A model generated the notes under the pieces. That model did not search any database and was not told the DNA's origin. It was given only the letters and a program-made list of their open reading frames with translations. Both the position numbers and the translations under genes were made by a program. Shown here in pieces: positions 5,336 through 59,061 of a stretch of 64,000 bases of DNA (positions are counted from its first letter, which is position 1; the number at the start of each line of letters is the position of its first letter). Source of the stretch: a virus; the IMG/VR virus record IMGVR_UViG_3300008267_000780, positions 1 to 64,000 of that record; one strand, 5' to 3'.

Positions 5336-5336
5336 T

Positions 5337-5914: not shown

Positions 5915-5948
5915 TCAATTTCAAAAAAATATTTTAGAAAATATAATT

Positions 5949-7656: not shown

Positions 7657-7702
7657 ACTCCTCAGCCGAGTTTGTTCAGACAAACTTGATACAAGTCGTT
7701 AA

Positions 7703-8395: not shown

Positions 8396-8451
8396 GATAG
8401 ATATGGCTATATGTTTGAATTATAAGAAAAATACACCAAATTTGTACTAAT

Positions 8452-29489: not shown

Positions 29490-30188
29490 ATGAGTAATAT
29501 CCGTAAATACCTTGCTGACGCACAGAATCGTGCTCACGAGGGCTTCTTGAATGCCGATGGCTTCTTTGATGACGATTTGAACTTCACCGCAGGTGATGAT
29601 TTTATGTCTGCTAATGGCGACCCTATGCCTGCAGCGGCTCCAACCTCTCAGCCTTACATCATCCAAATTGCAAACACAGGTAGTGCTGTTTCCAATTTCA
29701 GTGTGTTGGGTTCATACGAACAGTTGAGTGATACGGCAGCGTTCACTTCAGGTTCGTACACTTCAGGAAACGTGACGATTTCGTCTGCTATTCCTAACGT
29801 GACTTACCAACAGATGCTTTACCAATTTATGAACAACCCGTTCAGCATTGGTTTGACTTACATTCAGTCAGCATCAAGCACTCAGTTGTTGGAAACAATC
29901 AGCGTACAAACACGTGACGCGAATGGTAACTTGGCACAAAAGCCATTGGTGCCAACCGTGGACCCATATCAGTTTCAGACTACAGTCCTTGCTCTCCGCT
30001 TCGGATACAGAATCGATGGTTACACCAAATTGATTTTGAACCAAGTGTTAGCATCGACCACTGTGAAATTGTACTTGTACCCTGCAGACAACATCAATTT
30101 GGCTCGTGGATTGTCAGGTCGCGCTGTATCAAAAGATTTCAGCAGCCCAGGCATTGTGCGTGCTCAAACCGTGAAAATTCAGGGTTAA
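29490..30188 (+). CDS. candidate major capsid protein (single jelly-roll-like)
   Basis: 232 aa, beta-strand-rich; C-ending codon bias (TTC/AAC/ATC/TAC); own terminator-bounded unit next to the packaging ATPase. Confidence 0.65.
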   Translation: MSNIRKYLADAQNRAHEGFLNADGFFDDDLNFTAGDDFMSANGDPMPAAAPTSQPYIIQIANTGSAVSNFSVLGSYEQLSDTAAFTSGSYTSGNVTISSAIPNVTYQQMLYQFMNNPFSIGLTYIQSASSTQLLETISVQTRDANGNLAQKPLVPTVDPYQFQTTVLALRFGYRIDGYTKLILNQVLASTTVKLYLYPADNINLARGLSGRAVSKDFSSPGIVRAQTVKIQG

Positions 30189-38011: not shown

Positions 38012-38389
38012 ATGAATATTAAAAAGGATTTTTTTAAAGGAGTTAGTCTTTACGCCACTGAATCTTCGGTTCAAGAATCAGAAGTTCAAGTGCGATTGAC
38101 TATTGGTCAGAGTGAATCTGAGCCTATCAATTATCAATGGTGCATTAATTGGCAGCCCAATCGTAATACGAATTATAACGAGGTTATGGGTCGCAAAATT
38201 ATCAATATCACTGAGGCTTTAGTGGCACCTATGTTGCATCAAGCAATGGTCAAGTGGGCAAGAACTCTTGACATTTCATTAGAAAATTTTAGTGGTTTCT
38301 TGTTCAAGAAAGACGATGTTATTGGTGTTGCTATCTACGATAAGACAACCCCAAAAAAATTATGTCCAATTGAAGAATTACTTGGATGA
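38012..38389 (+). CDS. hypothetical protein
   Basis: ORF coupled to the fibre gene. Confidence 0.65.
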   Translation: MNIKKDFFKGVSLYATESSVQESEVQVRLTIGQSESEPINYQWCINWQPNRNTNYNEVMGRKIINITEALVAPMLHQAMVKWARTLDISLENFSGFLFKKDDVIGVAIYDKTTPKKLCPIEELLG

Positions 38390-39267
38390 GCGTCAAAGTC
38401 GCAAGAAGTTCCCATTGGGTTATTAGGACTCTCGAGGGGAACGGTTTAGCCGTTTATTTAGGCGAAGACGATGTAATTTATGTAAAGGACCAAAACGGGT
38501 CCATACAGCCGTTAAAGGAACTTATTGGGTCCCTATCGGTGGATGTCCCTGAAGGTGGTTTTCAAAGTGGTACTTCAGGTACTTCGGGAAAAACAAATGG
38601 AACATCGGGTTCATCGGGAACGAGCGGTTCCAATGGGCAAGACGGAACGTCGGGTGAAAATGGATTGGACGGTACATCGGGGTCATCAGGTTCTTCAGGA
38701 AGTTCAGGAACAAGCGGCATTGACGGTTCGTCAGGCTCTTCAGGTTATAGCGGTGTGGATGGAAGTTCAGGAAGTTCGGGAACTTCAGGCGTAAATGGAA
38801 TCGATGGCTCATCAGGAACGAGCGGAAATGGCGGTACAAACGGAACGAGTGGTATCAATGGAACATCGGGCTCTTCAGGAAAAGATGGAGATATTGGGGC
38901 AAAGGGAAGCAATGGAACCTCAGGCTCTTCGGGGGTTTGCGGTTCTTCAGGTACGAGCGGTGTAGGATATTCATTTGAGCAAATTGATAGTCGGTCAAAG
39001 ACATTATTGGATTTTACAAAAAGTCAAATTCTTTTCCTAAATTTGAATAATAACACGACACTAAATTTTGCAGGTTTTCCTGTTGGAATATTTTATCTGA
39101 TAGTAAAGCAAGGTATTGGTAACTACAGTGTTACATTCCCTTATGTCCTTAAACAAGCAAAAGGGTTTGAATATGTTCCAAGCATTTTCCCGAATGCTGT
39201 AGATGTGTTACAATTTATGTGCGATGGCACATCATTTTATGTGATTGACTGCAAAAAAGAATACTAA
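38386..39267 (+). CDS. short collagen-like (G-S/T-S) fibre protein
   Basis: about 130 aa of Gly-X-Y between globular ends. Confidence 0.8.
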   Translation: MSVKVARSSHWVIRTLEGNGLAVYLGEDDVIYVKDQNGSIQPLKELIGSLSVDVPEGGFQSGTSGTSGKTNGTSGSSGTSGSNGQDGTSGENGLDGTSGSSGSSGSSGTSGIDGSSGSSGYSGVDGSSGSSGTSGVNGIDGSSGTSGNGGTNGTSGINGTSGSSGKDGDIGAKGSNGTSGSSGVCGSSGTSGVGYSFEQIDSRSKTLLDFTKSQILFLNLNNNTTLNFAGFPVGIFYLIVKQGIGNYSVTFPYVLKQAKGFEYVPSIFPNAVDVLQFMCDGTSFYVIDCKKEY

Positions 39268-40037
39268 TGACCACAAGCGTTTTAACCACGAGTTTAGCAA
39301 GGAACATAAATACCGTTGAAGGTAATGGTCTTTATATTTTCCTCGATGACTCGGATTATGTGTTAAAGTTAAAAGACGTTGATGGAAATATACAGCCTGT
39401 TTCAGACTTCGTAGGAAGTGGTGGAACAAGCGGTGGTGGTATTCAATCAATCAATGCCTTAACAGCGGCTGCTCAATTTTTGACAACGGGTACTTCGGGT
39501 AGTGATTTTGCCGTACAGTCTTCAGGGAATACACACACTTTCAATTTGCCTGATGCGAGTACGAGTGCACGCGGTGTGGTAAGTACGGGCCCTCAAAATA
39601 TTAAAGGTGTCAAAACATTTACGGACAACGCATTTTTTCAAGGGGATGTGGACATTTTGGGTACGCTCACAGCGGAAGCCAAATCGTTCTTGATTCCTCA
39701 CCCCGACCCCGATAAACAAGGGTGGGATTTACAACACGGAAACTTAGAAGGTGGTGAACACGCGATTTATTATCGAGGCCGCATTCAAGGGACAAATATG
39801 ATATATCTACCTTCATATTGGAAGTTTTTGGTTAGTCAACACAGCATCACGGTGCATTTGACAAGTGCCAAAGGCGACTTCAATTATTTCGTAGAAGATG
39901 TGACTTTAGAAAGTATTCGAATTGCAAAATCCGTAGGAGATTGGTTTTCCTACGATTGCTATTTCATAATTCACGCTGAACGACGAGATATTGGCAAATT
40001 GAAGGTGGAGATTACACCTCAAGAAAAGCAATATTGA
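39267..40037 (+). CDS. fibre/spike protein
   Basis: N-terminal domain shared with the previous gene; QNIKGVKTF and KSFLIPHP...LEG.EH..YYRG motifs of phage fibres. Confidence 0.7.
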   Translation: MTTSVLTTSLARNINTVEGNGLYIFLDDSDYVLKLKDVDGNIQPVSDFVGSGGTSGGGIQSINALTAAAQFLTTGTSGSDFAVQSSGNTHTFNLPDASTSARGVVSTGPQNIKGVKTFTDNAFFQGDVDILGTLTAEAKSFLIPHPDPDKQGWDLQHGNLEGGEHAIYYRGRIQGTNMIYLPSYWKFLVSQHSITVHLTSAKGDFNYFVEDVTLESIRIAKSVGDWFSYDCYFIIHAERRDIGKLKVEITPQEKQY

Positions 40038-42004
40038 TGAAAAGAATACTCCATTTAATACCTCACCTCAGTACGGGTGGGTGCCCCCAATTCGCTTACG
40101 ACTTATTAAGAAAAACCAAAGACACCACAGATGCTTATGTGGTGGAATATGCATTCATTGCTTGGGACTATGTCGTTCAAAGAAATCGAATTATTGATTT
40201 AATGAAAGACAGGTTTTACTCTTTGGGAGAACAGAAAGAGCAACTGTTTGACATTATTGATACGATTAAGCCTGATGTTATCCATATTCAAGAATTTCCC
40301 GAATATTTTATGGACGATGAAATTGCCCGTAAATTGTACGATAATAATCGGGAATATGTAATTGTAGAAACGAGTCACGACAGCGGGTTCAATCCCGCGA
40401 ATAAGCGTTTTTTCTCAGACCATTTAGCATTGATAAGCCAATGGCAAATTGATAAATTTAAAGATTACGATATCCCAATAACTCTATTGGAAAGTGACAT
40501 CGAATACAAAACCAAAACTCAAAATCAGAGAGAAGAAGGGTTGTTAAAACTTGGATTAGACCCAAAGAAAAAACACGTTTTAAACGTGGGGTTATGGACA
40601 AGCAGAAAAAACCAAGCGGAAGTCTTAGAGTACGCAAAAGAACTCGAAAGGTACCCTGACATAGAATTTCATTTTGTTGGAAATCAGGCCCCTAATTTCG
40701 AGAATTATTGGGGTCCACTGATTCACAATCTACCATCAAATGTGCAAGTTTGGGGAGAACGTAGTGATGTAAATAGTTTTTACGAGTGTATGGACCTGTT
40801 CCTGTTTACATCCCGAGGAACCAATGGCGATATGGAAACGAGCCCGTTGGTGCTAAGAGAGGCGACAGGGCACCAAATGCCGATATTGATGTATAACCTG
40901 CCTGTCTACCTCGATTACTACAACAAATTCCCGAATATCAAATATTTAACCGACTTCAAAACAAACGTAAATTTGATTTTGTCGCTATTAAAAATTCAAG
41001 AAGAATTCCCGAGCAAATTATTCAAATTTGATTACGGAATTACGGATAACAAAATCTTCATTAACTATCAAAAAGACAGCAAAATGGAGGTTTGGTTTTC
41101 AATATGCGATACCGACACAAAGCACGCAATTTATGCTTTCAAAGGAGAGTTTGAATACAAATCCTCAATGTGGGTAATTCCTATTCCGAAAGATGCTTTC
41201 GACAATATTTACAATTCAAAAGGAAATTTCAGAGGGTATGAAATATCTGTTTGGGACAGTTTGCAAGAAAACCAATTAGAGAGCGAAATTATTTGGTTAA
41301 ATAAGAATTTACCTATCCCAAATTATAAAGTATTCGAAACTAATCCTTGGAATTTCACTTGGTCCAACTACAATGAAATGTTCATTGATAAATATTATGA
41401 AAAAACAAACATCGTGGTTGGTAAGGTTTGCTTAGATATTGGGGCAAATGATGGTTTATTTACTGAATGGTTACTGAGCCAAGGTTCTGAAAAAATTTAT
41501 GCAATTGAATGCGACCCAAGATGCATAAAATTTTTAAATAAAAAATTCAATTCCAATAAAAATGTGACTGTAATAAACAAGGCTTTATGGAAGGAAAATC
41601 AAAACGAAATGAAACTTTATTACGTTGATGATACTTCGGTGTTTAGTAGTTTGAAAGAAGAGGGAAATTGTAAGGGTAAAAATTATTATGGTGTTTGCTC
41701 TTGGGATTTTACAACTTTGATTAGTAAACACAATATCAATAAAATAGACTTATTCAAAATAGATATTGAGGGCGCAGAATATGAGGTATTTGAATCGATG
41801 ACAAATGAGCAAGTTAATCAAATCAATTCATTCTTAATCGAAATACATTTAAACACTAACGGTCAAGTTTATAAAATAACGGACAGATTAAAAATGTTAG
41901 GTTATGAAATACAGTTCAGAGAGCATAAAAATAACAGTTTGATAAATAATGAATTGGATTGGAAAAATTATGAATGGGCTTATTTAACAGCAACTAAAAA
42001 ATAA
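40037..42004 (+). CDS. GT4 glycosyltransferase-FkbM methyltransferase fusion
   Basis: PHLSTGG, RKNQ, ETSPLVLREA; LDIGANDG, KIDIEGAE. Confidence 0.9.
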   Translation: MKRILHLIPHLSTGGCPQFAYDLLRKTKDTTDAYVVEYAFIAWDYVVQRNRIIDLMKDRFYSLGEQKEQLFDIIDTIKPDVIHIQEFPEYFMDDEIARKLYDNNREYVIVETSHDSGFNPANKRFFSDHLALISQWQIDKFKDYDIPITLLESDIEYKTKTQNQREEGLLKLGLDPKKKHVLNVGLWTSRKNQAEVLEYAKELERYPDIEFHFVGNQAPNFENYWGPLIHNLPSNVQVWGERSDVNSFYECMDLFLFTSRGTNGDMETSPLVLREATGHQMPILMYNLPVYLDYYNKFPNIKYLTDFKTNVNLILSLLKIQEEFPSKLFKFDYGITDNKIFINYQKDSKMEVWFSICDTDTKHAIYAFKGEFEYKSSMWVIPIPKDAFDNIYNSKGNFRGYEISVWDSLQENQLESEIIWLNKNLPIPNYKVFETNPWNFTWSNYNEMFIDKYYEKTNIVVGKVCLDIGANDGLFTEWLLSQGSEKIYAIECDPRCIKFLNKKFNSNKNVTVINKALWKENQNEMKLYYVDDTSVFSSLKEEGNCKGKNYYGVCSWDFTTLISKHNINKIDLFKIDIEGAEYEVFESMTNEQVNQINSFLIEIHLNTNGQVYKITDRLKMLGYEIQFREHKNNSLINNELDWKNYEWAYLTATKK

Positions 42005-42022
42005 ATTATTAAAATTAAATAT

Positions 42023-43786
42023 ATGACAAACATAGAAACCCCTTTATTTAGAGTAGAGTATGTAAAAGACGAAAACAAGATTTTTGTTTACTACAATGAG
42101 AAAAATCCAATTGATGTCAGTATTTCAGTAGCCGATATAGATTCAAAGCACGCGATTTACGCGTTTGATTCTCATTTCAGGGACTATTCAGGATGTTGGA
42201 ATGTTCCCGTTCCCTTGGGCGCATTGCATCACTACAATCGCACGGGATACTTCAGGGGATATGAGGTTTCTATTTACACTGCGGACAGAACTACGCTGTT
42301 GGAACAACATACAATTTGGTACAACGAAAATGCTCCAAAATTTGAGAGAGTTTTGTTCCCGACAGACCCTTGGAATTTGACGTGGATTAACTATACGGAA
42401 ATGTTTGTTGAAGACTTTTACAATCCACTCCAAATGAATATCAAAGGTGTATGCTTGGATATCGGGGCTAACGATGGACTGTACACCGAATATTTGCTGC
42501 GTAATGGAGCGGAAAGGGTTTATGCAGTAGAATGTGACCCTCGAAGCATTAAGTTTCTGAACAAGCGATTCAATGGCGACACAAGGGTTGTAATTGTTGA
42601 CAAAGGTTTATGGAATGCAAACCAAAACGGTGTAAAGTTAGCCTACAAAGAAGATACAAGCACTGTTTCATCCATCAAAACTGAAGTTCATCACTTCGAT
42701 GAAAACAATTATTTCTACATCGATACTTGGGATTATGCAACCCTAAAAAGCAAAATGAATATCAGCAAAGTAGATTTTTTCAAAATTGATATTGAAGGTG
42801 CGGAATATGAGGTTTTCGAATCAATGACCGATGATGACATTTGCGAAATTGAAGGTTTTATGGTTGAAATTCATTGGAACTCAAATGGTCGTATTTATGG
42901 TATCACCGATAGATTGCAAAGATTAGGATACTCAATCGAACTTCGCAGACACACCGTGGACAATGCTGTAATAGAGAACCGTGATGAATGGAAGGACTAC
43001 GACCTGTGCACATTCTACGCTTCAAAAAAAAAAGAACCTCGGAAGTTTAGTTTAGTCATTCATCACTTACAAACGACTCTGTTGACTGATGTTGAAAAGC
43101 AAAGTCGTGATAAAATTGATTTTCTAATTTATTTGTTGAAAAAAGATTCTCGTTTTAGTGAGGTCAAGTGGTATCGTCATATGAATGCTCCTTGGAAAGA
43201 ATTACCCACTACCGAAAATTGCAATAGACCAAATGCGGTGTCTATGGAACAATTTCCAAATGGCACGAATGAATATGGGCAAACTGCCCTAACACCTGCA
43301 CATTATGGTTGTTTTAGAGCATTCAATGATGCCATTCAGATGAAGTTCAATCAGGATTTTTCAGCAACAATGGTATTTGAGGGGGACGCGGACATTCAGG
43401 ATGTGAATCAATACATTGAATGCCTATATGCTGCATTGTGCGAGGCCGACAAAAATCAAATTGACTTCATTTCATTCGGAGGCGCGTATCATTTAGAAAC
43501 AGGCGATTTATTGGCGCATCCTGTAGAACGCATTGATGCTTTGCCTTTTGGGTGGATTTCGAAACACGTTCCTTTTGCGCATTCGATAATTATTCCTCAG
43601 AGATACATCAGACAGATGATGCACGCCTTTGCAAAGGAGCCTTGGGATGTTGCTGATTTATTTTTTATCAATCATTTTAATATGAATCCTGACAGAAGGC
43701 AATTTGTAAGTGAAATTCAACTCAGTCATCAAATTGATGGGTATTCACTAATTGACAAAAAGATTAAAAATTACTTAATCAAATGA
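42023..43786 (+). CDS. FkbM methyltransferase-GT-A (GT25-like) fusion
   Basis: LDIGANDG, KIDIEGAE; HYGC..AF, VFEGDA. Confidence 0.8.
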   Translation: MTNIETPLFRVEYVKDENKIFVYYNEKNPIDVSISVADIDSKHAIYAFDSHFRDYSGCWNVPVPLGALHHYNRTGYFRGYEVSIYTADRTTLLEQHTIWYNENAPKFERVLFPTDPWNLTWINYTEMFVEDFYNPLQMNIKGVCLDIGANDGLYTEYLLRNGAERVYAVECDPRSIKFLNKRFNGDTRVVIVDKGLWNANQNGVKLAYKEDTSTVSSIKTEVHHFDENNYFYIDTWDYATLKSKMNISKVDFFKIDIEGAEYEVFESMTDDDICEIEGFMVEIHWNSNGRIYGITDRLQRLGYSIELRRHTVDNAVIENRDEWKDYDLCTFYASKKKEPRKFSLVIHHLQTTLLTDVEKQSRDKIDFLIYLLKKDSRFSEVKWYRHMNAPWKELPTTENCNRPNAVSMEQFPNGTNEYGQTALTPAHYGCFRAFNDAIQMKFNQDFSATMVFEGDADIQDVNQYIECLYAALCEADKNQIDFISFGGAYHLETGDLLAHPVERIDALPFGWISKHVPFAHSIIIPQRYIRQMMHAFAKEPWDVADLFFINHFNMNPDRRQFVSEIQLSHQIDGYSLIDKKIKNYLIK

Positions 43787-45930
43787 GAATCGCACATATT
43801 CAACCAAGCGTAATTTCAGTCCCCCCAAATGGATGGGGGGCAATTGAAAAAATCATTTGGGAATACAAAATGGTTTTGAATCAGTTAGGACACGTCTGCG
43901 AAGTAGTCAATTTGCAAGATTTAAAGGCCGAAGAATGGGACGTTGTTCATTGCCATATGTTTGACCAAGCATTGTGGTTGGCCGAACAAAAAATCCCATA
44001 TTTCTATTCTCACCACGACCATCATTCGATAGTGTGGGGTGAAGAAAGTGCTAACTATCAATTAAATCTGAAAGCAATGAGACTTGCTGAGGTTGCCTTT
44101 GTTCACGCGAAAAGTAGTATTGAGGTCTTCAAAAATATCCCTTATTATTTGAGTCACGGTGTCAATACTGAATTCTTTAATTTTGTAGAGCCGAAAGGTA
44201 TTGATGAGCCAAATATTATTATTGTAGGAAACAATGGTTTGGCGGGGACTGAGAAAGTATTTGACCGAAAAGGATTCAGATATGCAATAGAGGCGGCACG
44301 TGAATTAAAGTGGTCAATTACTATGGTTGGCCCCAAAGCAACCCAAGAACAGTTTCTTAGGGAAAACCCTGATTTGCAGTATGAAAAATTAAGGTTGGTT
44401 TTTGATGCGGACGAAGAGCAGTTGAAGAAAGAACTACAGAATGCTCATTTAATGATTCACGCTACGTTTGTAGAGGCAGGTCATCCCCCTTTAACACCGT
44501 TGGAAGCAATGTCTTGCGGGGTCCCTGTAATTGGCACACCAATGGGTGACGATGTGCCTCAAATAGTATGTGAAAGAACTACCGAAAGCGTAGTGGAAGG
44601 AATTAAACAATTTGTATTTCAGAGACACGCATTAATTGAAGAAGCACGTCAAATTGCCGAAAATTACGATTGGAAAATTATTGTAGAAAATAATTTATTG
44701 AAATGGTATTTTGAGGTATTGGACCGAAACAATATGGCTAACACGGCCCGTAGAATTTACCATCAATCGACCATCAATAAAGTGCAAGACACTATGATGT
44801 TCAAGTATTTAGATGGTGCAAGGGTTGATTTGGTTGGCAGTAGCGACTTTAAATACAAATCAGAATTATTTATTCAAGACACTCAAGAAGTTATTTACGG
44901 TTGTGAAATAAAATGCGGGATGTTCGCACAATCTGCAAGAAAATATCATCGTAACTATGCTTGGAAAATCACAGATGAAAAGGGGAACGAATTCATTCAA
45001 CCTTACGATGCAAAAAACAAAAGGGTTTACGTGGCCATCGAAAGTTCAAGTTTAGGAGATTCCTTGGCTTGGATGCCGATTATAGAAGAGTTCAGATTGG
45101 TTCACTCCTGTAAATTGATTGTAAGCACTTTTTGGAACGATATGTTCAAGGATGCATATCCTGAAATTGAATTTATCAGGGCAGGTACACCCGTGAATAA
45201 TATTTACGCGATGTACAGAATAGGTTGGTATTATGAAAACGATGGATTGGATGTTCATTTTGGACATCATTCGAGGGATTTTCGCAAATTCTCACTGCAA
45301 GGTACGGCCTGTGATATATTGGGCTTGCCCGACATTGAAGTCAAACCCAAAATAAAAGAAGTTGAAGGTCAAAAATTCAATAAAAAATATGTGGTTATTG
45401 CACCTCACGCTTCGAGTCATTGCAAATATTGGCACAATGAAGAAGGATGGGCTAAAGTGGTCGAATTTTTAAACGACTTGGGATATGAAGTTTGGAACAT
45501 CTCAAAAGAGTCTGCATCAAGCGATTGGGAGAATTCTAAGTTGCCAAAAAACGCCTTAAAAAATGTAATTGATAAGACAGGAGACATACATATAGACGAA
45601 AGGATTTCTCAAATAAAATCCTCATCTTTGTTTATTGGATTAGGGAGCGGACTTTCGTGGTTGGCTTGGGCCTGTAGTACACCTGTTGTCCTAATAAGTG
45701 GTTTCTCAAGGCCTGTAAGCGAATTTACGGATTGTACCCGTGTCTTTAATCAAAATGTGTGTAATGGATGCTTTAACGATTACAGGCTTGATGCAGGTAA
45801 TTGGAATTGGTGCCCTAAATATGAAAATACTGACAAAATGTATGAATGCAGTAAGTCGATTACTCCTGAACAAGTAATTGATGCAATTAGGAAAACACTA
45901 AACAAGCACCAAACAGCACCCGATGGCTAA
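43783..45930 (+). CDS. GT4 domain fused to TibC/Aah-like O-heptosyltransferase
   Basis: GWGAIE, EAMSCG; SSSLGDSLAW, KYW, FIGLGSGLSWLAW, ISGFS.P..EF, iron-finger CNGC...WCP...EC. Confidence 0.85.
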   Translation: MRIAHIQPSVISVPPNGWGAIEKIIWEYKMVLNQLGHVCEVVNLQDLKAEEWDVVHCHMFDQALWLAEQKIPYFYSHHDHHSIVWGEESANYQLNLKAMRLAEVAFVHAKSSIEVFKNIPYYLSHGVNTEFFNFVEPKGIDEPNIIIVGNNGLAGTEKVFDRKGFRYAIEAARELKWSITMVGPKATQEQFLRENPDLQYEKLRLVFDADEEQLKKELQNAHLMIHATFVEAGHPPLTPLEAMSCGVPVIGTPMGDDVPQIVCERTTESVVEGIKQFVFQRHALIEEARQIAENYDWKIIVENNLLKWYFEVLDRNNMANTARRIYHQSTINKVQDTMMFKYLDGARVDLVGSSDFKYKSELFIQDTQEVIYGCEIKCGMFAQSARKYHRNYAWKITDEKGNEFIQPYDAKNKRVYVAIESSSLGDSLAWMPIIEEFRLVHSCKLIVSTFWNDMFKDAYPEIEFIRAGTPVNNIYAMYRIGWYYENDGLDVHFGHHSRDFRKFSLQGTACDILGLPDIEVKPKIKEVEGQKFNKKYVVIAPHASSHCKYWHNEEGWAKVVEFLNDLGYEVWNISKESASSDWENSKLPKNALKNVIDKTGDIHIDERISQIKSSSLFIGLGSGLSWLAWACSTPVVLISGFSRPVSEFTDCTRVFNQNVCNGCFNDYRLDAGNWNWCPKYENTDKMYECSKSITPEQVIDAIRKTLNKHQTAPDG

Positions 45931-48900
45931 AAACATTTTAATCACACCCTATAGGAATTCCACGAATCCTTTAGAGTTACCAAAAATAGACTTCATAAAT
46001 GGCTCTACGGCCATTACGCTTCAAGTTGAAGAAACTACACAGTCGATAACTTATGTTGGTTCTGCAGGCACGCTTTTGCAAATCAATAATGATTTAACAG
46101 GCACAACCGTATCCACAAAAAACATTGCAATTACAGGTGTTATTAAAAACACAGGTATAACCTCGAATTCGGGGTTAAATGATTTTGTGGTAGTTGATAT
46201 TGCTACGGGTCAGTTTTACTACCGTAGTGCACCAACGGGTACTTCAGGTTCTTCGGGTCAAAGCGGCACAAGCGGAACTTCAGGAGCCAACGGCTCTTCG
46301 GGTACTTCGGGAGCCAACGGCTCAAGTGGTACTTCAGGGGCCAATGGTTCGTCAGGTACCTCAGGGGCGAATGGCTCATCAGGAACATCGGCATCAAGTG
46401 GAACTTCAGGCTCTACAGGTTCGTCGGGAACTTCAGGTGCAAATGGTTCATCAGGGACATCAGGTGTAAATGGTTCATCAGGAACATCAGGAACATCGGG
46501 TGAAAATGGTAGTTCGGGAACATCGGGAGAAAATGGCTCTTCAGGAACATCAGGTGAAAATGGTAGTTCAGGAACATCGGGCGAAAATGGCTCAAGTGGA
46601 ACATCAGGTGAAAATGGTAGTTCGGGAACATCGGGTGAAAATGGTTCAAGTGGAAGTTCGGGTACTTCAGGAGCAAACGGAAGTTCAGGAACTTCAGGCG
46701 CAAATGGAACATCAGGTACATCGGGAGGCAGTGGAGCGTCAATAAGTGATGGTTGGGATTGGGGTACACCAATTAATGCAACCAAAATGTATTCAAGCAA
46801 TGGTGCTTTGGATTCATCCTCAGTCTTATTGAATATTTCGGAAACTTCGTTGACATCTCAAAACTATGCGAGTCAATTTTCATTGATTGGTATTGGTTCA
46901 AAAATTACAACACGGGGTGGATTGTTTGGAGCAAATGTGACGGAATGGGAAGTTACATCTGTAACCGATTCAGGCACATATTATGAATTTGGTGTAACTT
47001 ATCTTTCAGGTACTCAATGGACTCCATCAACGGGAGACGATATTTTATGTGATTTTGCTATTGCGGGTCAAGCGGGAACAAGTGGAACTGCGGGAACGTC
47101 AGGTGCCAATGGTTCTTCGGGAACGTCAGGGGCGAATGGCACATCAGGCACATCAGGAGAAAATGGAACAAGCGGAACATCGGGCTCTACAGGTTCATCA
47201 GGAACTTCGGGAGCGGGGGTTGCTAATTATTATGCTCAATATAGCAGTAGCGTATCACAGGCTATTGCAGTAGTTAATACCCCTCAAGTTATCACTTATA
47301 ATACCGTCGAAATAGAAAATGGTATTAGTTTTTCAGGAGGTCAAATAACCGTACAATACTCAGGTATTTACGAATTTAGTTTTTCTCCACAAGTTGAAAA
47401 AACACAGGGTGGTACAGCAGTCAACGTAGATTTTTTCATTAGAAAAAACGGATTTGACGTAATCAGAACAGATTCTATCATTGGATTGGTATCCAATAGT
47501 CAATTACAACTTCCTTTTGTTTCTTTGACTTTAGAGTTGTTACAAAATGACTTTATTGAGTTACTATTTGCATCCTCAAGTACGTTTGTTCAAATAACTG
47601 CGGAAGCCGCTAAAACTACACCATTTGTGGCCCCCGCTGCACCATCTGTAATTGTAAGCCTTAAAAATATTGGTGTTGCAGCGGTGGCTTATACCTCTAC
47701 ATCAGGAAGTTCAGGACAAAGTGGTACTGCAGGGGTTTCGGGAACAAGTGGTTCTACAGGAACTTCAGGTTCTTCAGGCGAAAGCGGAACAGCAGGTACT
47801 TCGGGTATTGCAGGTACTTCGGGTACTTCGGGCGATAGTGGTTCAAGTGGAACGTCAGGAACAGGAGGTTCGTCAGGTTCTTCAGGCGATAGTGGTTCAA
47901 GTGGAACTTCAGGAACAGGTGGTTCAAGCGGTACTTCAGGAACAGGAGGTTCATCGGGTTCTTCAGGAAATAGTGGTTCAAGTGGAACTTCAGGAACAGG
48001 AGGTTCAAGTGGTACTTCAGGAACAGGAGGTTCATCGGGTTCTTCAGGAAATAGTGGTTCAAGTGGAACTTCAGGAACAGGCGGTTCGTCAGGTTCTTCA
48101 GGGAATAGTGGTTCAAGCGGCACTTCAGGAACAGGAGGTTCGTCAGGTTCTTCAGGCGATAGTGGTTCAAGTGGAACTTCAGGAACAGGCGGTTCAAGCG
48201 GTACTTCAGGAACAGGAGGTTCAAGCGGTACTTCAGGAACAGGAGGTTCGTCAGGTTCTTCAGGCGATAGTGGTTCAAGTGGAACTTCAGGAACAGGCGG
48301 TTCGTCAGGTTCTTCAGGCGATAGTGGTTCAAGTGGTACTTCAGGAACAGGCGGTTCAAGTGGTACTTCAGGTTCATCGGGTTCAAGCGGAAGCACGGGG
48401 ACATCGGGCTCAACGGGCTCAAGCGGGTCAAGCGGAAGCGCAGGAACGTCAGGTTCAACAGGTTCAAGCGGAAGTGCAGGAACCTCAGGCTCTACAGGTT
48501 CATCAGGAACGTCAGGCTCTACGGGTTCATCGGGAACATCGGCATCAAGTGGAAGTTCAGGTAGCGCAGGTACTTCAGGAGAAAGCGGTAGCGCAGGTAC
48601 TTCAGGTTCTACAGGTTCAAGCGGTTCAAGCGGAAGCACGGGGACATCGGGCTCAACGGGCTCAAGCGGGTCAAGCGGAAGCGCAGGAACAGGCGGTTCA
48701 AGCGGTACTTCAGGAACAGGAGGTTCGTCAGGTTCGTCAGGCGATAGTGGTTCAAGTGGAACTTCAGGAACAGGCGGTTCAAGCGGTACTTCAGGAACAG
48801 GCGGTTCGTCAGGTTCTTCAGGCGATAGTGGTTCAAGTGGAACTTCAGGAACAGGCGGTTCAAGTGGTACTTCAGGTTCATCGGGTTCAAGCGGAAGCAC

Positions 48901-51900
48901 GGGGACATCGGGCTCAACGGGCTCAAGCGGGTCAAGCGGAAGCGCAGGAACGTCGGGTTCAACAGGAACAAGTGGTAGCACGGGAACATCGGGTTCTTCA
49001 GGAACAAGTGGAAGCACGGGTTCAAGCGGTTCAACAGGTTCAAGTGGTACTTCGGGCTCAAGCGGTACGAGCGGTAGCACGGGTTCAAGTGGTACAAGCG
49101 GTTCTACAGGAACTTCGGGTTCTGCAGGAAGTGCAGGCTCAAGTGGTTCAACGGGTTCTTCAGGAACATCGGGCTCAAGCGGTACAAGCGGTAGCACAGG
49201 TTCTTCGGGTTCTACAGGTTCTTCAGGCACATCAGGTTCATCAGCAACTTCGGGCTCTGCAGGCTCTTCGGGAACTGCGGGTTCTGCAGGTTCATCAGGA
49301 ACTTCAGGGGCAAATGGTTCATCGGGAACAAGCGGAAGCGCGGGTTCTTCGGGTTCTACAGGTTCATCAGGCACATCAGGCTCAAGCGGAACATCAGGAA
49401 GCGCGGGTTCAAGCGGTTCAACAGGTTCAAGTGGTACATCGGGCTCAAGCGGTACGAGCGGTAGCACGGGCTCAAGTGGTTCTACGGGTTCTTCAGGAAC
49501 ATCAGGTTCTACAGGTTCTTCGGGGTCTACAGGAACATCAGGTTCTACAGGAACTTCAGGTTCAAGTGGTTCATCAGGAACTTCGGGCGCAAATGGTTCA
49601 AGCGGAACGAGCGGAAGTGCGGGTTCAAGCGGTTCAACGGGTTCATCAGGAACGAGCGGCTCAAGTGGAACGAGCGGAAGTACAGGCTCAAGCGGTTCAA
49701 CAGGGTCCTCAGGAACTTCAGGTTCTTCAGGAACATCGGCATCAAGCGGAACTTCAGGAACTGCAGGTACTTCAGGAAGTGCAGGAACTTCAGGTGAAAA
49801 CGGTTCTTCAGGAACGTCAGGCTCAAGCGGAAGTGCGGGTTCAACAGGTTCTTCAGGAACCTCAGGTTCAAGCGGAACGAGTGGTAGCACAGGCTCAAGT
49901 GGTTCTACAGGCTCAAGTGGTACTTCGGGTTCGTCAGCAACTTCAGGCTCTACGGGTTCATCAGGAACCTCGGGAGCGAATGGCTCTTCAGGTACTTCAG
50001 GTTCATCAGGAAGTGCAGGTACGAGTGGTTCAACAGGCTCAAGCGGAACCTCAGGTTCTTCAGGAACAAGCGGAAGCACAGGTTCAAGCGGTTCAACAGG
50101 CTCAAGCGGAACCTCAGGTACATCAGCAACTTCGGGTTCTGCAGGTTCAAGCGGTACATCGGGTTCTACGGGTTCATCGGGAACATCGGGTTCTGCAGGT
50201 TCATCAGGAACCTCAGGTTCTGTAGGTTCTTCAGGAACTTCGGGTTCTGCAGGCTCAAGCGGTACAAGTGGAAGCACGGGTTCAAGTGGTTCAACAGGTT
50301 CATCAGGAACGTCAGGTACGTCAGCAACGTCGGGTTCTGCGGGTTCAAGCGGTTCAACAGGTTCAAGCGGAACGTCAGGCTCAAGCGGTACGAGCGGTAG
50401 CACGGGTTCAAGTGGTTCTACGGGTTCAAGTGGTACTTCGGGTTCTACGGGTTCAAGCGGCACTTCGGGTGCAAATGGTTCAAGTGGTACAAGCGGTTCT
50501 GCAGGTTCGTCAGGAACTGCAGGTTCTGCAGGTTCATCAGGAACCTCAGGTGCAAATGGCTCATCAGGTACATCGGGTTCATCAGGAAGCGCAGGCTCAA
50601 GTGGTTCAACGGGTTCAAGCGGAACATCGGGTTCTTCAGGAACAAGCGGAAGCACGGGTTCAAGCGGTTCTACGGGTTCATCAGGAACTTCGGGTTCTGC
50701 AGGAACCTCAGGTTCAAGTGGTTCTTCAGGAACATCGGGAGCGAATGGTTCAAGCGGAACGAGCGGAAGTGCGGGTTCAAGCGGGTCAACAGGTTCATCA
50801 GGAACGAGCGGCTCAAGCGGAACAAGCGGAAGCACAGGGTCAAGTGGGTCAACAGGTTCATCAGGAACGTCAGGTTCATCAGGAACTTCGGCATCGAGCG
50901 GAAGTTCAGGAAGCGCAGGTACTTCAGGAAGTGCAGGAACATCAGGGGCAAATGGTTCATCAGGAACTTCAGGTTCTTCAGGAAGCGCAGGCTCATCGGG
51001 CTCTACGGGTTCTTCAGGAACGTCAGGTTCAAGCGGAACAAGCGGAAGTGCGGGTTCAAGCGGCTCTACGGGTTCTTCAGGAACGAGTGGTAGCGCGGGT
51101 TCTTCAGGCACATCAGGTTCTGCAGGCTCTTCAGGAACATCAGGAGCAAACGGCTCAAGTGGCACATCGGGCTCTTCAGGAAGCGCGGGCTCTTCGGGTT
51201 CTACAGGAAGTTCAGGAACCTCGGGTTCAAGTGGAACGAGCGGTAGCACAGGTTCTTCGGGTTCTACGGGCTCTTCAGGCACATCAGGCTCAAGCGGAAC
51301 ATCCGCATCAAGTGGTTCTTCGGGTACATCGGGTTCCGCAGGTTCTTCAGGAACCTCGGGAGCAAATGGCTCTTCAGGAACTTCGGGCTCTGCAGGTAGT
51401 GCGGGCTCAAGTGGTTCAACAGGCTCTTCAGGAACATCAGGGTCAAGCGGAACATCAGGAAGCACAGGTTCAAGTGGTTCTACGGGTTCGTCAGGAACTT
51501 CGGGTTCTTCAGCAACATCAGGCTCTGCGGGTTCTTCGGGAACGGCAGGCTCTTCAGGTTCTTCGGGAACTTCGGGCGCAAACGGCTCAAGTGGTACTTC
51601 AGGTTCTGCAGGTTCTACAGGCTCAAGTGGTACTTCGGGTTCTACAGGCTCAAGTGGTACTTCGGGTTCTTCAGGAACTTCGGGCACAGCGGGTTCAAGT
51701 GGTACTTCAGGAAGTACAGGCTCAAGCGGTTCTACGGGTTCATCAGGAACGAGTGGTTCTTCAGGCACCTCGGGTGCAAACGGTTCAAGCGGAACTTCGG
51801 GTTCTTCGGGTAGTGCGGGGTCAAGTGGCTCTACAGGCTCATCAGGAACATCAGGTTCAAGCGGTACAAGTGGTAGCACAGGTTCTTCAGGCTCTACGGG

Positions 51901-54900
51901 TTCTTCAGGGACATCAGGCTCATCAGCAACTTCGGGCTCTGCAGGTTCGTCAGGGACTTCAGGAAGTGCGGGTTCATCAGGTACTTCGGGAGCAAATGGT
52001 TCGAGCGGAACAAGCGGTAGCGCAGGTTCTTCGGGTTCTACAGGTTCATCAGGCACCTCAGGTTCAAGCGGAACAAGCGGAAGTGCAGGCTCAAGCGGTT
52101 CTACGGGTTCAAGCGGAACATCAGGCTCTGCAGGTTCAAGTGGCACTTCGGGTTCTGCAGGTTCTTCAGGAAGTGCGGGCTCATCAGGTACTTCAGGCGC
52201 AAATGGTTCAAGCGGAACAAGCGGAAGCGCAGGTTCTTCAGGAAGCACAGGTTCATCAGGAACATCGGGTTCTTCAGGAACAAGCGGTAGCACGGGTTCT
52301 TCGGGGTCTACAGGCTCAAGCGGAACAAGCGGTAGCGCAGGTTCTTCAGGAACATCGGCATCAAGTGGAAGTTCAGGAAGCGCAGGTACATCAGGAAGTT
52401 CAGGAACATCAGGGGCCAACGGCTCAAGCGGTACTTCAGGTTCTGCAGGCAGTGCGGGCTCAAGTGGTTCTACAGGTTCAAGTGGTACTTCGGGTTCATC
52501 AGGAACAAGTGGTAGCACGGGTTCAAGTGGTTCGACAGGTTCATCAGGTTCTACAGGCTCATCAGGTTCTACAGGGACTTCAGGCTCAAGCGGTTCATCA
52601 GGAACTTCAGGAGCAAACGGTTCAAGTGGTACAAGCGGTAGTGCGGGTTCGTCAGGTTCCACAGGTTCTTCAGGGACATCAGGCTCAAGCGGAACATCAG
52701 GAAGCGCGGGTTCAAGCGGCTCTACGGGCTCTTCAGGCACATCAGGTTCTTCAGCAACTTCGGGTTCTGCAGGTTCATCAGGAACTGCAGGCTCTGCAGG
52801 TTCTTCGGGAACTTCAGGTGCAAATGGCTCAAGCGGTTCAAGCGGAACAAGTGGTAGTTCGGGTTCTTCAGGCTCTACAGGTTCTTCAGGAACATCAGGT
52901 TCAAGCGGAACAAGCGGAAGCGCGGGTTCTTCGGGTTCAACGGGTTCAAGCGGTACAAGCGGCTCTTCAGGAACATCGGCATCAAGCGGAAGTTCAGGAA
53001 GCGCAGGCACATCAGGTAGTTCGGGTACTTCAGGAGCAAATGGTTCAAGTGGCTCAAGTGGAACAAGTGGTTCTTCAGGAAGCGCAGGTTCAACAGGGTC
53101 ATCAGGCTCATCAGGAACTTCGGGTTCGAGCGGAACAAGTGGTTCAACAGGTTCAAGCGGCTCTACGGGCTCAAGTGGGTCTACGGGTACATCGGGTTCA
53201 AGCGGTTCAAGCGGAACTTCGGGAGCAAATGGTTCAAGTGGTTCATCAGGAACAAGTGGTAGTGCAGGTTCAAGTGGAACAAGTGGTTCTGCGGGTTCAT
53301 CAGGAACATCAGGCTCTGCAGGCTCTTCGGGAACTTCAGGCACAGCGGGTTCAAGTGGAACATCAGGAACACGTGGTTCTTCAGGTTCATCAGGCTCTAC
53401 AGGTTCTTCAGGGACTTCGGGTTCATCAGGAACAAGTGGTAGCACGGGTTCATCAGGCTCTACAGGTTCAAGCGGAACATCAGGCTCTTCGGGAACATCT
53501 GCATCAAGCGGAAGTTCAGGAAGCGCGGGTACATCGGGCTCAAGCGGAACTTCAGGAGCGAATGGTTCGTCAGGTACTTCGGGCTCTTCAGGAAGTGCGG
53601 GTTCAAGCGGTTCAACAGGTTCTTCAGGCACATCAGGCTCAAGCGGTACATCAGGAAGCGCAGGTTCAAGTGGTTCTACAGGTTCTTCAGGAACAAGCGG
53701 TAGCGCAGGTTCTTCAGGCACATCGGGTTCTGCAGGCTCGTCAGGCACATCAGGTGCAAATGGCTCATCAGGAACATCGGGTTCTTCAGGTAGTGCGGGT
53801 TCATCGGGTTCTACGGGTTCTTCAGGAACATCAGGCTCAAGCGGTACATCAGGAAGCGCAGGTTCTTCAGGCTCTACAGGCTCAAGTGGAACAAGCGGTA
53901 GCGCAGGTTCTTCAGGCACATCAGGTTCTGCAGGCTCTTCAGGCACATCAGGTGCAAACGGTTCAAGTGGTACAAGTGGCTCAAGCGGAAGCGCAGGTTC
54001 AAGCGGTTCTACGGGAAGTTCAGGAACCTCGGGTTCAAGTGGAACAAGTGGTAGCACAGGTTCAAGCGGGTCAACAGGTTCAAGCGGAACGAGTGGTAGT
54101 GCAGGTTCTTCAGGAACATCAGGCTCGGCAGGTTCAAGCGGAACGAGTGGTAGCGCAGGTTCTTCAGGCACATCAGGCACAGCAGGTTCAAGTGGTACTT
54201 CGGGAACACGTGGTTCTTCAGGTTCATCAGGTTCTACAGGAACGAGCGGTTCAAGCGGAACAAGTGGAAGCACAGGTTCAAGCGGCTCTACGGGCTCAAG
54301 TGGTACTTCGGGTTCGTCAGGAACCTCGGCATCAAGCGGAAGTTCAGGAAGTGCGGGTACCTCAGGTAGTTCAGGAACTTCAGGGGCAAATGGCTCAAGT
54401 GGCTCAAGTGGAACAGCAGGTTCTTCAGGAAGCGCGGGTTCTTCAGGTTCTACAGGTTCTTCGGGAACAAGTGGTTCATCAGGAACGAGTGGTAGCACGG
54501 GCTCAAGCGGTTCTACAGGCTCAAGTGGGTCTACGGGAACATCGGGGTCAAGTGGCTCAAGCGGAACATCAGGGGCAAATGGCTCAAGTGGTTCTTCAGG
54601 AACGAGCGGAAGCGCAGGCTCATCAGGAACTTCGGGTTCAGCGGGCTCATCAGGAACGAGCGGAAGCGCAGGTTCAAGCGGAACAAGTGGTAGCGCAGGT
54701 TCAAGCGGGTCAACGGGCTCTTCGGGAACTTCAGGCTCAAGTGGCTCGTCGGGTACATCGGGTGCCAACGGCTCAAGTGGCTCAAGCGGAACAGCAGGTT
54801 CTTCAGGAAGTGCGGGTTCTACGGGTTCTTCAGGGTCTTCAGGCACAGCAGGGTCGTCAGGTACGGCAGGTTCTTCGGGTAGTGCGGGCTCAAGTGGCTC

Positions 54901-57900
54901 TACAGGCTCAAGCGGTACTGCGGGCTCAAGCGGCTCTTCAGGCACATCGGGTGCAAATGGCTCAAGTGGTTCTGCAGGTTCAAGTGGTACTTCAGGAACA
55001 GCAGGTTCAAGTGGTACTTCAGGAACGCGAGGTTCGTCAGGGTCATCAGGCTCTACAGGTTCAAGTGGGTCTACGGGTACGTCAGGCTCAAGCGGTTCAA
55101 GTGGCACATCGGGCTCGAGCGGGTCTTCAGGCACATCAGGAGCGAATGGTTCAAGCGGCTCTTCAGGAACAAGTGGTTCTTCAGGAAGCACGGGTTCAAG
55201 TGGGTCTACGGGTTCATCAGGAACAGCAGGTTCTTCAGGAAGTGCGGGTTCTACAGGGTCTTCAGGCTCTTCAGGAACAGCAGGTTCATCAGGTACATCG
55301 GCATCAAGTGGTAGTTCAGGAAGTGCAGGCACATCAGGCGCAAATGGCTCGAGCGGCTCAAGCGGAACGAGCGGTTCTTCAGGAAGCGCGGGTTCTACAG
55401 GGTCTTCAGGCTCTTCAGGAACAGCAGGTTCATCAGGCACATCGGGTTCTGCGGGTAGTGCAGGCTCAAGCGGCTCTACGGGCTCAAGCGGTACATCAGG
55501 CTCAAGCGGGTCTTCGGGTACATCAGGTGCAAATGGCTCAAGCGGTTCAAGTGGAACAAGCGGGTCTGCAGGTTCAAGTGGTTCTACGGGCTCATCGGGT
55601 TCGTCAGGAACTGCAGGTTCAAGCGGTACTGCAGGTTCTTCAGGTTCTACAGGCTCAAGCGGGTCTACGGGCTCAAGCGGAACTGCGGGTTCAAGCGGGT
55701 CTTCAGGCACATCGGGTGCAAATGGCTCAAGCGGTTCAAGTGGAACAAGTGGTTCTGCGGGGTCTTCGGGAACTTCGGGAACAGCGGGGTCAAGCGGTAC
55801 TTCAGGAACTCGGGGTTCATCGGGTTCATCGGGTTCGACAGGCTCAAGTGGTTCAACGGGTACATCAGGCTCAAGCGGTTCGAGCGGAAGCGCGGGTACG
55901 TCAGGTGCAAACGGTTCGAGCGGAACAAGCGGTTCTTCAGGAAGTGCGGGTTCTACAGGCTCTTCAGGCTCTTCAGGAACAAGTGGTTCAAGCGGAACAA
56001 GCGGAAGTGCAGGTTCAAGCGGTTCTACAGGCTCAAGTGGGTCTACGGGTACTTCGGGCTCAAGTGGCTCAAGCGGAAGTGCAGGCACATCAGGTGCAAA
56101 CGGTTCTTCAGGAACGGCAGGTTCTTCAGGAAGCGCAGGTTCAAGTGGGTCTACGGGTTCTTCAGGAACTGCAGGTTCTTCAGGTAGTGCAGGTTCTACG
56201 GGTTCTTCGGGTTCTTCAGGAACTGCGGGTTCGAGTGGAACTTCGGGCTCATCAGGAAGCGCAGGTTCAAGCGGAAGCGCGGGTACATCGGGTGCAAATG
56301 GTTCAAGCGGAACTTCGGGCTCATCAGGAAGTGCAGGTTCTACGGGCTCATCAGGTTCGTCAGGAACTGCAGGCTCAAGTGGAACATCAGGAACGAGGGG
56401 TTCTTCAGGCTCAAGCGGTTCTACGGGTTCCTCAGGCTCCACAGGAACCTCAGGCTCAAGCGGAAGCGCAGGCACATCAGGTGCAAACGGTTCTTCAGGA
56501 ACGTCAGGTTCTTCAGGAAGCGCAGGTTCAAGTGGGTCGACAGGGTCAAGTGGAACATCAGGTTCTTCAGGAAGTGCGGGTTCTACAGGCTCATCAGGTT
56601 CTTCGGGAACAGCGGGTTCATCAGGAACATCGGCATCAAGTGGAAGTTCAGGAAGCGCAGGTACTTCAGGGGCAAACGGTTCTTCGGGTACTTCGGGCTC
56701 ATCAGGAAGCGCAGGTTCTACGGGCTCATCAGGCTCAAGCGGAACAGCGGGCTCATCAGGAAGCGCAGGTTCGAGTGGCTCTACAGGGTCAAGCGGAACA
56801 GCGGGCTCATCAGGAAGTGCAGGTTCTACGGGTTCAAGCGGTTCTACGGGTACATCGGGCTCAAGCGGTTCGAGTGGAAACACGGGGGCAGCGGGGTCAA
56901 GCGGAACGAGTGGGTCTTCAGGTAGCGCAGGTTCAACGGGTTCGAGCGGGTCTTCAGGAACTGCGGGTTCTTCAGGAACATCGGGCACAAGAGGTTCATC
57001 AGGTTCAAGTGGGTCTACAGGTTCGAGTGGTTCTACGGGTACATCAGGCTCAAGCGGTTCGAGTGGAAACACAGGAGCAGCGGGGTCAAGCGGAACGAGC
57101 GGGTCTTCAGGAAGTGCAGGTTCGACAGGTTCAAGTGGTTCTACAGGTACATCGGGCTCAAGCGGTTCGAGTGGAAACACGGGCGCAGCGGGTTCAAGTG
57201 GAACGAGCGGGTCTTCAGGCAGCGCAGGTTCGACAGGTTCAAGTGGTTCTACGGGTACATCGGGCTCAAGCGGTTCGAGTGGAAACACAGGTGCTGCGGG
57301 TTCAAGTGGAACGAGCGGTTCGAGTGGAAACACAGGTGCGGCAGGTTCTTCGGGAACTTCAGGCTCAAGCGGCTCAAGTGGTAACACAGGTGCGGCAGGT
57401 TCAAGCGGAACGAGCGGTTCGAGTGGAAACACAGGAGCGGCAGGTTCTTCGGGAACTTCAGGCTCAAGCGGCTCAAGTGGTAACACAGGTGCGGCAGGTT
57501 CAAGCGGAACGAGCGGTTCGAGTGGAAACACGGGTGCGGCAGGTTCATCAGGGACTTCAGGTGCAAACGGTGCTGCGGGCTCAAGCGGAACAAGCGGTTC
57601 ATCAGGAACTTCAGGCGCAAACGGAGCGGCAGGTTCTTCAGGAACGTCGGGTACACGAGGTTCATCAGGAACTTCGGGCGCAAACGGAGCAAACGGTTCG
57701 TCAGGAACTTCAGGCGCAAACGGAGCAAATGGTTCGTCAGGAACTTCGGGAGCAAATGGAGCGGCAGGTTCTTCGGGAACTTCGGGCGCAAATGGAGCGG
57801 CAGGTTCCTCGGGAACTTCGGGTACACGTGGTTCAAGTGGAACATCGGGTGCAAATGGAGCAAATGGTTCATCAGGTACGTCAGGCGCGAATGGAGCAAA

Positions 57901-58474: not shown

Positions 58475-59061
58475 TGGCAGTACCAACATCAAATATAAGT
58501 ATGAGCGCAATTTACGGGGAGGCCAACGTAGGTGGCCCCCCGAGCGACTTGGCGGTTAGTGACTTATTCAAATTGTCATATTTTGAAAGTAACGCTTTCG
58601 GTGGTCCCTTGGCATATAATGCTTGGGGTATTTATGGAAATGCGAGTGGCGCAGACAGAATTTATGGACTTTCGGCAAGTAACACCAATAATAACTTTAA
58701 TCAATTTGCGAGCAAAGTTTACTATATGGATAATTCAACGTATGCTAACTATGTAGATGTAGTCAACAATTTAGTAGCACCCCCCCCTCCTGACCCACCT
58801 GATTTGAACGATATAACTGTTTTTTGTAGATTATATGATTCTACAGGTGTTTATCAATATAGTTTGTTTCAGTCCTTAATAGCCGCAGGTGGTAGTGCAA
58901 GTCAAATATTTAGTAACACGACTGAACCTATTTTGGCAGTAGCATATTGGGAAGTTCAGTTTCAGCCATCGAGTCCTATGTTTGCAGGTACAACGTGTAA
59001 TATAGATATAAATAATATTAGTAGCATCAAATTCATCAGGGTACATTGGCACTTACTTTGA
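58474..59061 (+). CDS. fibre tip/adhesin-like protein
   Basis: MAVPTSNISMSAIYGE N-terminus is typical of partners of S74-chaperoned fibres; 3' end possibly frameshifted. Confidence 0.6.
   Translation: MAVPTSNISMSAIYGEANVGGPPSDLAVSDLFKLSYFESNAFGGPLAYNAWGIYGNASGADRIYGLSASNTNNNFNQFASKVYYMDNSTYANYVDVVNNLVAPPPPDPPDLNDITVFCRLYDSTGVYQYSLFQSLIAAGGSASQIFSNTTEPILAVAYWEVQFQPSSPMFAGTTCNIDINNISSIKFIRVHWHLL

Follow-up and report, generated by a model that had tools for sequence, protein, structure and literature searches.

The 64-kb window considered here, which opens a 74.7-kb virus record of IMG/VR (IMGVR_UViG_3300008267_000780), encodes three fusion enzymes directly ahead of a gene for a 4183-amino-acid (aa) collagen-like fibre, and we consider it likely that this cluster is a virus-encoded protein O-glycosylation kit for the virus's own Ser/Thr-rich collagen-like fibres: the giant one and, probably, a 293-aa one encoded nearby. 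The enzymes belong to recognisable families, their catalytic residues are conserved, they are coupled to the fibre gene in an operon-like fashion, and they are specifically paired with such fibres across unrelated virus lineages. An earlier note on this DNA had read the region as a dedicated fibre-glycosylation cluster with a TibC/Aah-like serine heptosyltransferase, an interpretation which, taken as a whole, is partly supported.

Seven same-strand genes are packed between 38386 and 59061 (+), their stops and starts overlapping or nearly touching; the junctions are, in order, TAATG, TGATG, an 18-nucleotide gap, ATGA, an 8-nucleotide overlap (ATGGCTAA) and TAATG. The enzyme open reading frames (ORFs) lie at 40034/40037-42004, 42023-43786 and 43783-45930, and we refer to them as genes 1, 2 and 3. 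As the earlier note had claimed, the last of them overlaps the start of the giant fibre gene (45923-58474, +), and it does so by these eight nucleotides. The accompanying claim, that the enzymes are flanked by two Ser/Thr collagen genes, holds on the downstream side, where the fibre gene adjoins, but not upstream, where the short collagen gene (38386-39267) is set apart by a non-collagen gene (39267-40037).

Gene 3 (+) joins a GT4 domain (43783-44772) to a TibC/Aah-family protein O-heptosyltransferase domain (44779-45930), and the assignment of the latter to this enzyme family is well supported by its sequence. Residues 333-704 match the NCBIfam model TIGR04414 (hepto_Aah_TibC) with 315.3 bits, over an equivalog cut-off of 200, and cover model positions 7-373 of 374; relatives in two other loci reach 336 (L036) and 257.7 bits (L008). 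TibC itself (PDB 4RAP) aligns with gene 3 at E 3e-58, starting from TibC residue 22, and the Pfam model of the N-terminal flattened β-barrel (PF21129, TibC_1st) is matched at E 8e-4 and 19.9 bits, under its 27-bit cut-off. Pfam also detects GT9 in this protein, together with PF00534 and PF13692 in its GT4 domain (40.9 and 42.7 bits; cut-offs 26.4 and 27). Using the residue roles shown by Yao et al. (PMC4358343), which we mapped by reading the 4RAP alignment, the catalytic base Asp110 of TibC corresponds to D426 of gene 3, and the sugar-binding Thr226, Lys230, Arg286 and Trp305 correspond to S544, K548, R607 and W626, all of these gene 3 residues being invariant or nearly so in the homologue alignment. 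The four cysteines of the 1Fe-0S iron finger (Cys339, Cys342, Cys358 and Cys370) are found as C660, C663, C677 and C689, a predicted metal site. Pfam, NCBIfam and the 4RAP alignment thus bear out the enzyme families named in the earlier note, GT4-FkbM for gene 1 and GT4-heptosyltransferase with a Cys iron finger for gene 3.

Genes resembling TibC are abundant in IMG/VR, with at least 585 matches. We fetched 86 TibC-linked loci, 80 of which are the best of those matches; 46 loci extend 5 kb or more beyond the TibC-like match on its upstream side and 40 have shorter flanks. Counting as a collagen ORF any that was Pro-free and had at least 60 triplets (those found carry 0.45-0.87 Ser/Thr at the X and Y positions), we recovered such an ORF in 41 of the 46 loci with long upstream flanks and in one of the 40 with shorter ones, usually 4-6 kb upstream of the TibC-like match and on the same strand. 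Dereplication leaves the picture in place: at 90% identity a collagen ORF occurs in 28 of 31 clusters, and at 70% in 10 of 11. The check that the earlier note had set, whether this glycosyltransferase and GSS/GTS fibres occur together in viromes, comes out strongly positive and specific. The other enzymes recur too: a GT4 of the gene 1 type (~50% identity) is present in 51 loci, the GT25-like domain in 42 and a GT4 of the gene 3 type in 74, the usual order in other carriers being fibre, 195-aa protein, GT4-(FkbM)-GT25, GT4 and TibC. The pairing is kept across different carriers, and whether the fibre lies upstream or downstream; since it recurs across so many viruses, the fibre is probably the target of the enzymes.

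A natural control comes from a marine and aquatic lineage (L096-L104 and L110; ~4994-10369), found by searching with the S74 tail of the window fibre. Its fibre, a Pro-free collagen of 1669 aa and 475 triplets, has a Ser/Thr content of only 14% and carries an S74 tail 58% identical to that of the window fibre; TibC, GT4 and GT25-like genes are absent from the fetched flanks. The same absence holds, over the flanks fetched, for S74 fibres without collagen repeats; a further Ser/Thr-rich fibre recovered by the same search (L112) is followed by GT4 and GT25-like genes. These comparisons are important when considering whether the enzymes might instead modify the host envelope, be it the core or O-chain of lipopolysaccharide (LPS) or a surface protein such as an autotransporter, for instance blocking superinfection, with the proximity of the fibre reflecting no more than the plasticity of the region. 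Indeed, glycosyltransferases in the hypervariable tail-fibre regions of aquatic T4-like phages and pelagimyophages have been read as modifiers of host O-chains (PMC7029224), and GT9, GT4 and GT25 are all described as frequent in LPS synthesis. However, a host-envelope role does not explain a linkage to Ser/Thr-rich collagen fibres in particular rather than to fibres generally, nor one which outlasts transfer between unrelated virus types, and the TibC domain scores 315 bits on the protein O-heptosyltransferase equivalog against only 44 for the best LPS heptosyltransferase model; we therefore regard such a role as unlikely.

The bacterial relatives keep different company. Of the TibC-like loci from prokaryotes (Burkholderiaceae, Negativicutes, Lentisphaerota and others), 68 out of 74 are without a collagen ORF. 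The remaining six are contigs of metagenome-assembled genomes, and all six fall in the virus-dominated half of our tree, where the pair closest to the query, from Flavobacteriales and Winogradskyella at 47% identity, are placed with contigs of viruses. The tree itself splits, with an SH-like support of 100, into a bacterial half, where none of the 36 rows has collagen, and the virus-dominated half, where 35 of 47 do.

Among phage records, a tblastn search with the TibC domain found four matches, one in Microcystis phage Mel-JY01 and three in huge phages that are uncultured. Mel-JY01 (PP395634.1, L010, 3065-8430) is the only cultured phage in which we found a TibC-like domain: it lies at the C-terminus of a 1226-aa protein, annotated as 'methyltransferase FkbM', which also holds a GT4 domain. 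The gene comes after one for a Ser-rich, non-collagen 'structural protein', and a 639-aa cytidylyltransferase-like protein is encoded 3 kb downstream. Some metagenomic proteins go further (P0018, P0022, P0025 and P0027; 1147-1241 aa), in fusing two or three TibC-like domains or in taking the form TibC-FkbM-TibC or GT4-TibC-GT25-like-TibC; we know of no multi-TibC enzymes from bacteria.

Genes 1 and 2 share a duplicated module. Gene 1 (40037-42004, +) consists of a GT4 domain (~40037-41010), a β-rich linker of 120 aa (41012-41371) and an FkbM methyltransferase domain (41372-42004), and gene 2 (42023-43786, +) of a linker (42023-42394), an FkbM domain (42395-43030) and a GT-A domain closest to GT25 (43031-43786). 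In the former, PF00534 and PF13692 match the C-terminal Rossmann half of the GT4 domain (41.4 and 36.8 bits; cut-offs 26.4 and 27), which has an ExxxxxxxE motif at 267-275. Both FkbM copies carry the S-adenosylmethionine-binding motif DIGANDG, at 467 in gene 1 and 146 in gene 2, and both match PF05050 (49.6 and 52 bits, respectively) and TIGR01444 (82 and 66.8 bits; cut-off 37.7). As the earlier note had noticed, the linker and FkbM unit is duplicated between the two genes, with 48% identity over 332 aa (E 8e-111) between residues 327-656 of gene 1 (P0001, numbered from the TTG at 40034) and residues 6-336 of gene 2. One homologue of 922 aa (P0128) is unsplit and runs GT4-linker-FkbM-GT25-like in a single chain, and others are unsplit with two FkbM domains, from which it follows that the window lineage has undergone tandem domain duplication and then gene fission. 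We considered whether the linker might be a relative of the N-terminal barrel of TibC and detected no relationship (hhalign probability 0.15%); an ESM Atlas search with it gave no usable match.

The C-terminal domain of gene 2 (251 aa) has no Pfam match even at E 10, and hence no direct match to the GT25 family PF01755, so that the 'GT25-like' label of the earlier note has to draw on homologues and on fold. The domain has 155 HMMER relatives, among 31 stand-alone homologues eight match PF01755 with E values down to 1.5e-5, and the L036 homologue reaches 21.6 bits, below the 24-bit cut-off. An AlphaFold2 (AF2) model of the domain (pLDDT 93) placed human COLGALT1 and its homologues in the top six Foldseek rows, with E values of 1e-8 to 8e-8 and TMq of 0.56-0.61. 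The residues E453 and D455 are invariant among homologues, and the acidic metal motif D455-A-D457 is present. By fold and transitive homology, then, a GT25-like GT-A domain seems a fair label, with membership of the family unproven.

What these enzymes would have to work on is a highly repetitive protein. The fibre has 1196 G-X-Y triplets, dominated by GSS (480), GTS (303) and GST (138), and its 4183 residues include 1612 Ser, 571 Thr, 14 Pro and 27 Lys, such that potential O-glycosylation sites make up more than half of all residues. PF01391 is matched over residues 106-272 (90.6 bits), and the last 170 residues match PF13884, Peptidase_S74 (61.1 bits). If triple-helical, the fibre would be about 1 micrometre long, at the established 0.286 nm per residue. 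Its triplets form 21 runs, mostly separated by single Gly-to-Ala breaks; some 20 such breaks (…GTS-ASS-GSS…) are irregularly spaced, 17-148 triplets apart, and could be hinge points. Directly 3' of the fibre gene lies a gene for a 195-aa protein (58474-59061, +) with no Pfam or PHROG match, which tblastn finds in the same position in T4-like carriers (L033, L040, L044 and L068; 31-38% identity), and which we take for a conserved fibre partner, perhaps an assembly factor or tip protein.

Two smaller proteins open the gene array. The 293-aa protein (38386-39267, +) is Ser/Thr-rich and collagen-like, with 41 G-X-Y triplets, a PF01391 match of 62.6 bits and matches to tail-fibre PHROGs, and is a candidate second fibre and acceptor. 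The 256-aa protein (39267-40037, +) is fibre-like and non-collagen (phrog_28536, E 2e-26; phrog_17490) and is kept in loci L003 and L011; the matches assign no function to its C-terminal domain. By eye, both share a similar N-terminus of ~45 residues (38386-38530 and 39267-39400; …EGNGL…L…D…G.IQP…), which may be a virion-attachment module. Might the kit glycosylate virion proteins such as these, or capsid or membrane proteins, and leave the giant fibre alone? The 293-aa protein does sit in the same operon, and mycobacteriophage glycosyltransferases are said to act on capsid and tail-tube proteins. On the other hand, it is the giant Ser/Thr collagen ORF which co-varies with the enzymes across lineages, and it is the giant fibre gene to which gene 3 is translationally coupled, so we hold this restricted target range to be quite improbable.

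With the giant fibre as the preferred substrate, we can sketch how the kit would work. In the cytoplasm of the infected cell, the TibC/Aah-type domain would place a sugar on the hydroxyls of Ser, and possibly of Thr, at positions X and Y of the triplets; further sugars would be added by both GT4 domains (retaining GT-B) and by the GT-A domain that resembles GT25, and the two FkbM domains would O-methylate them; and the fibre would trimerise via its C-terminal S74 chaperone. GT4 enzymes can themselves initiate protein O-glycosylation, as GtfA does on serine-rich-repeat adhesins, and this bears on the order of the steps. The first sugar would most likely be a heptose taken from host ADP-heptose, a point on which our judgement is about evenly balanced; it is favoured by the kept sugar-binding residues and by a gene resembling rfaE domain II in one T4-like carrier. 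The product of this gene (L089, 1480-1884), 134 aa long, is matched best by the HldE/RfaE heptose-1-phosphate adenylyltransferase domain, at 102 bits and so below the 181.5 cut-off, and the resemblance hints that some carriers may supply part of the ADP-heptose pathway.

The purpose of such a coat could go beyond protection. Glycosylated Thr stabilises Pro-poor collagens, as in the cuticle collagen of Riftia, and the sugars of the viral fibre may therefore be structural as well as protective. We would offer one bolder proposal, tentatively and as something we rather doubt in its entirety: that dense, methyl-capped O-glycosylation, begun by a virus-specific branch of TibC enzymes, replaces hydroxyproline in holding together a proline-free, ~1-micrometre collagen triple helix, and that this 'glyco-collagen' cassette of fibre and enzymes has passed between T4-like phages and a freshwater virus lineage that is unrelated to them and possibly tailless.

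Several considerations weigh against fibre glycosylation, the published host-modifier interpretation of comparable phage genes among them. Glycosylation of the fibre is deduced from sequence and context, and known TibC substrates are folded β-helical autotransporters, not collagen. The thumb tip through which TibC assembles into its dodecameric ring (Phe265/Val266) has become W582/E583 in gene 3, and the position governing stereoselectivity for D,D- versus L,D-heptose, Pro300 in TibC and Ser294 in AAH, is a glycine (G621), thus neither Pro nor Ser. Heptose-pathway genes (PF01467, PF13580) were not found in the window virus. The 80 best-matching loci are not a random sample, and the FastTree phylogeny was midpoint-rooted, drew long-branch warnings and left out E. 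coli TibC itself.

The viruses which carry the cassette appear to be of more than one kind. Carriers L023, L036 and L030 are T4-like, having Gp23 matches, and one of them is available as a complete 164-kb genome (L089, the same carrier as L036), in which the cassette adjoins the tail sheath gene. The window virus has no Pfam match to Gp23, HK97 capsid or Pox_A32, and PHROG scans of its 20 largest ORFs found, among tailed-phage hallmarks, only a weak match to a large-terminase family (E 3.4e-4). By these tests the window virus is not T4-like, which argues that the cassette has moved between different virus lineages. A 232-aa protein with a β-rich core (29490-30188, +) has no Pfam or PHROG match and 1277 homologues, many at 63-92% identity and on contigs of up to ~130 kb; its structural model is weak (pLDDT 56.7), and the best fold matches, mostly jelly-roll capsids, have Z scores of at most 6.7, within the stated noise of the tool.

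Few of the ORFs tested outside the fibre and glycosyltransferase genes match a named family. Among them are a RecT-like annealing protein (61606-62391, -; phrog_148, E 5e-45) and an AAA_5/MoxR-like ATPase (12296-13699, +). In a 371-aa protein (21920-23035, +), DUF2958 (51 bits) is joined to a nucleotide pyrophosphokinase domain of the RelA/SpoT type (58.8 bits), which predicts a virus-encoded alarmone-synthetase-like enzyme. At a distance of 33 kb from the fibre cluster, the window encodes another pair of glycosyltransferases, a GT2-like protein (4700-5335, +; phrog_29879, 'galactosyl transferase') and a GT4 (6281-7504, +), neither with a relative in the 86 TibC-linked loci; the GT4 is the only match to the GtfA model, and a weak one (30.5 bits against a cut-off of 574.6). 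The presence of this pair at 4700-7504, along with the many non-protein acceptors used by GT4 and GT-A enzymes, might be taken to suggest that the cluster makes a free or lipid-linked polysaccharide or modifies DNA, with no protein acceptor at all. This we find very hard to credit: lipid-carrier, flippase or polymerase genes were not seen in the cluster, and the characterised members of the TibC family, as far as known, all act on protein serines (PMC4358343).

The enzyme cluster is not an artefact of one assembly. Between 98 and 100% of sampled words from the enzyme region recur in independent freshwater and lake metagenome assemblies from at least 10 studies, and one independent contig spans 40391-46560 with zero differences and no indels listed, from which we take the enzyme genes to be real and intact. 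Some independent contigs show 8-kb 'skips', in which the Gly-Ser repeats of one collagen gene are connected to those of the other; we rejected these as deletions and read them as assembly-graph effects of the repeat. RNA runs contain only small shares of the region, as contigs, and megablast of the cluster against 50,697 phage records gave no match.

In our literature searches, which combined TibC or heptosyltransferase with phage, cyanophage and collagen-like, no paper connected enzymes of the TibC type with phages or with collagen-like proteins. Phage virion glycosylation as such is already known, from mycobacteriophages. What sets the window apart is a carrier that shows no T4 or HK97 capsid signatures, a linker-FkbM unit that has been duplicated and divided between two genes, and a 4183-aa fibre gene placed downstream of, and coupled to, the TibC gene. 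If the fibre is indeed the substrate, the reach of the TibC/Aah family, known only for the virulence-linked modification of bacterial autotransporters, would extend to collagen-like fibres of viruses, and the family would have a large, virus-borne environmental branch. This reading would also offer another account of the 'LPS-type' glycosyltransferases in the fibre regions of abundant aquatic phages, so far read as modifiers of the host surface, and a route to asking how a proline-free collagen helix can be stable. Moreover, considering that this virus is found in near-identical form across so many freshwater and lake metagenomes, micron-long, sugar-coated fibres could matter for host encounter in lakes.

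How, then, does the cluster compare with known systems? Mycobacteriophage glycosyltransferases reportedly act in the cytoplasm of the host, where they O-glycosylate structural proteins of the phage itself; that system differs in having no TibC-type enzymes and in targeting the C-termini of capsid and tail-tube proteins, not a collagen-like fibre. GtfA/GtfB and their follow-on glycosyltransferases, of the accessory Sec system, likewise work as a set of cytoplasmic enzymes that O-glycosylate a Ser-rich repeat protein of great length, in their case with a GT4 enzyme as initiator; the window lacks GtfB and accessory Sec genes, and the repeats are different. Human COLGALT1 (GLT25D1; GT25), the collagen hydroxylysine galactosyltransferase, is the best structural match of the gene 2 C-terminal domain, at 14-16% identity, and we group the bacterial GT25 LPS galactosyltransferases with it as comparators of that domain; as the fibre has so few Lys, hydroxylysine cannot be the acceptor here. 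In the BclA exosporium filament of Bacillus anthracis and B. cereus, a collagen-like G-X-Thr repeat is heavily O-glycosylated and bears a methylated terminal sugar. BclA differs from the viral fibre in being bacterial, Pro-rich (GPT) and short, and its rhamnose and anthrose enzymes are unrelated to TibC.

The closest parallels remain TibC-TibA and Aah-AIDA-I of E. coli, whose enzymes belong to the bacterial autotransporter heptosyltransferases (BAHT; PDB 4RAP/4RB4). Unlike these, gene 3 is fused to a GT4 domain, sits in a separate, virus-dominated clade, and comes with putative extension and methylation enzymes; to our knowledge, only single heptoses occur on AIDA-I and TibA. Its neighbours, too, are collagen-like fibres in place of an autotransporter partner, a difference in substrate and not in enzyme fold. 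For all this, gene 3 shares with TibC and Aah the curated HMM family, the catalytic Asp, the sugar-binding Lys, Arg and Trp, and the four iron-finger Cys, and, like them, it is encoded beside a surface protein that is Ser-rich and highly repetitive, with many sites to be modified.

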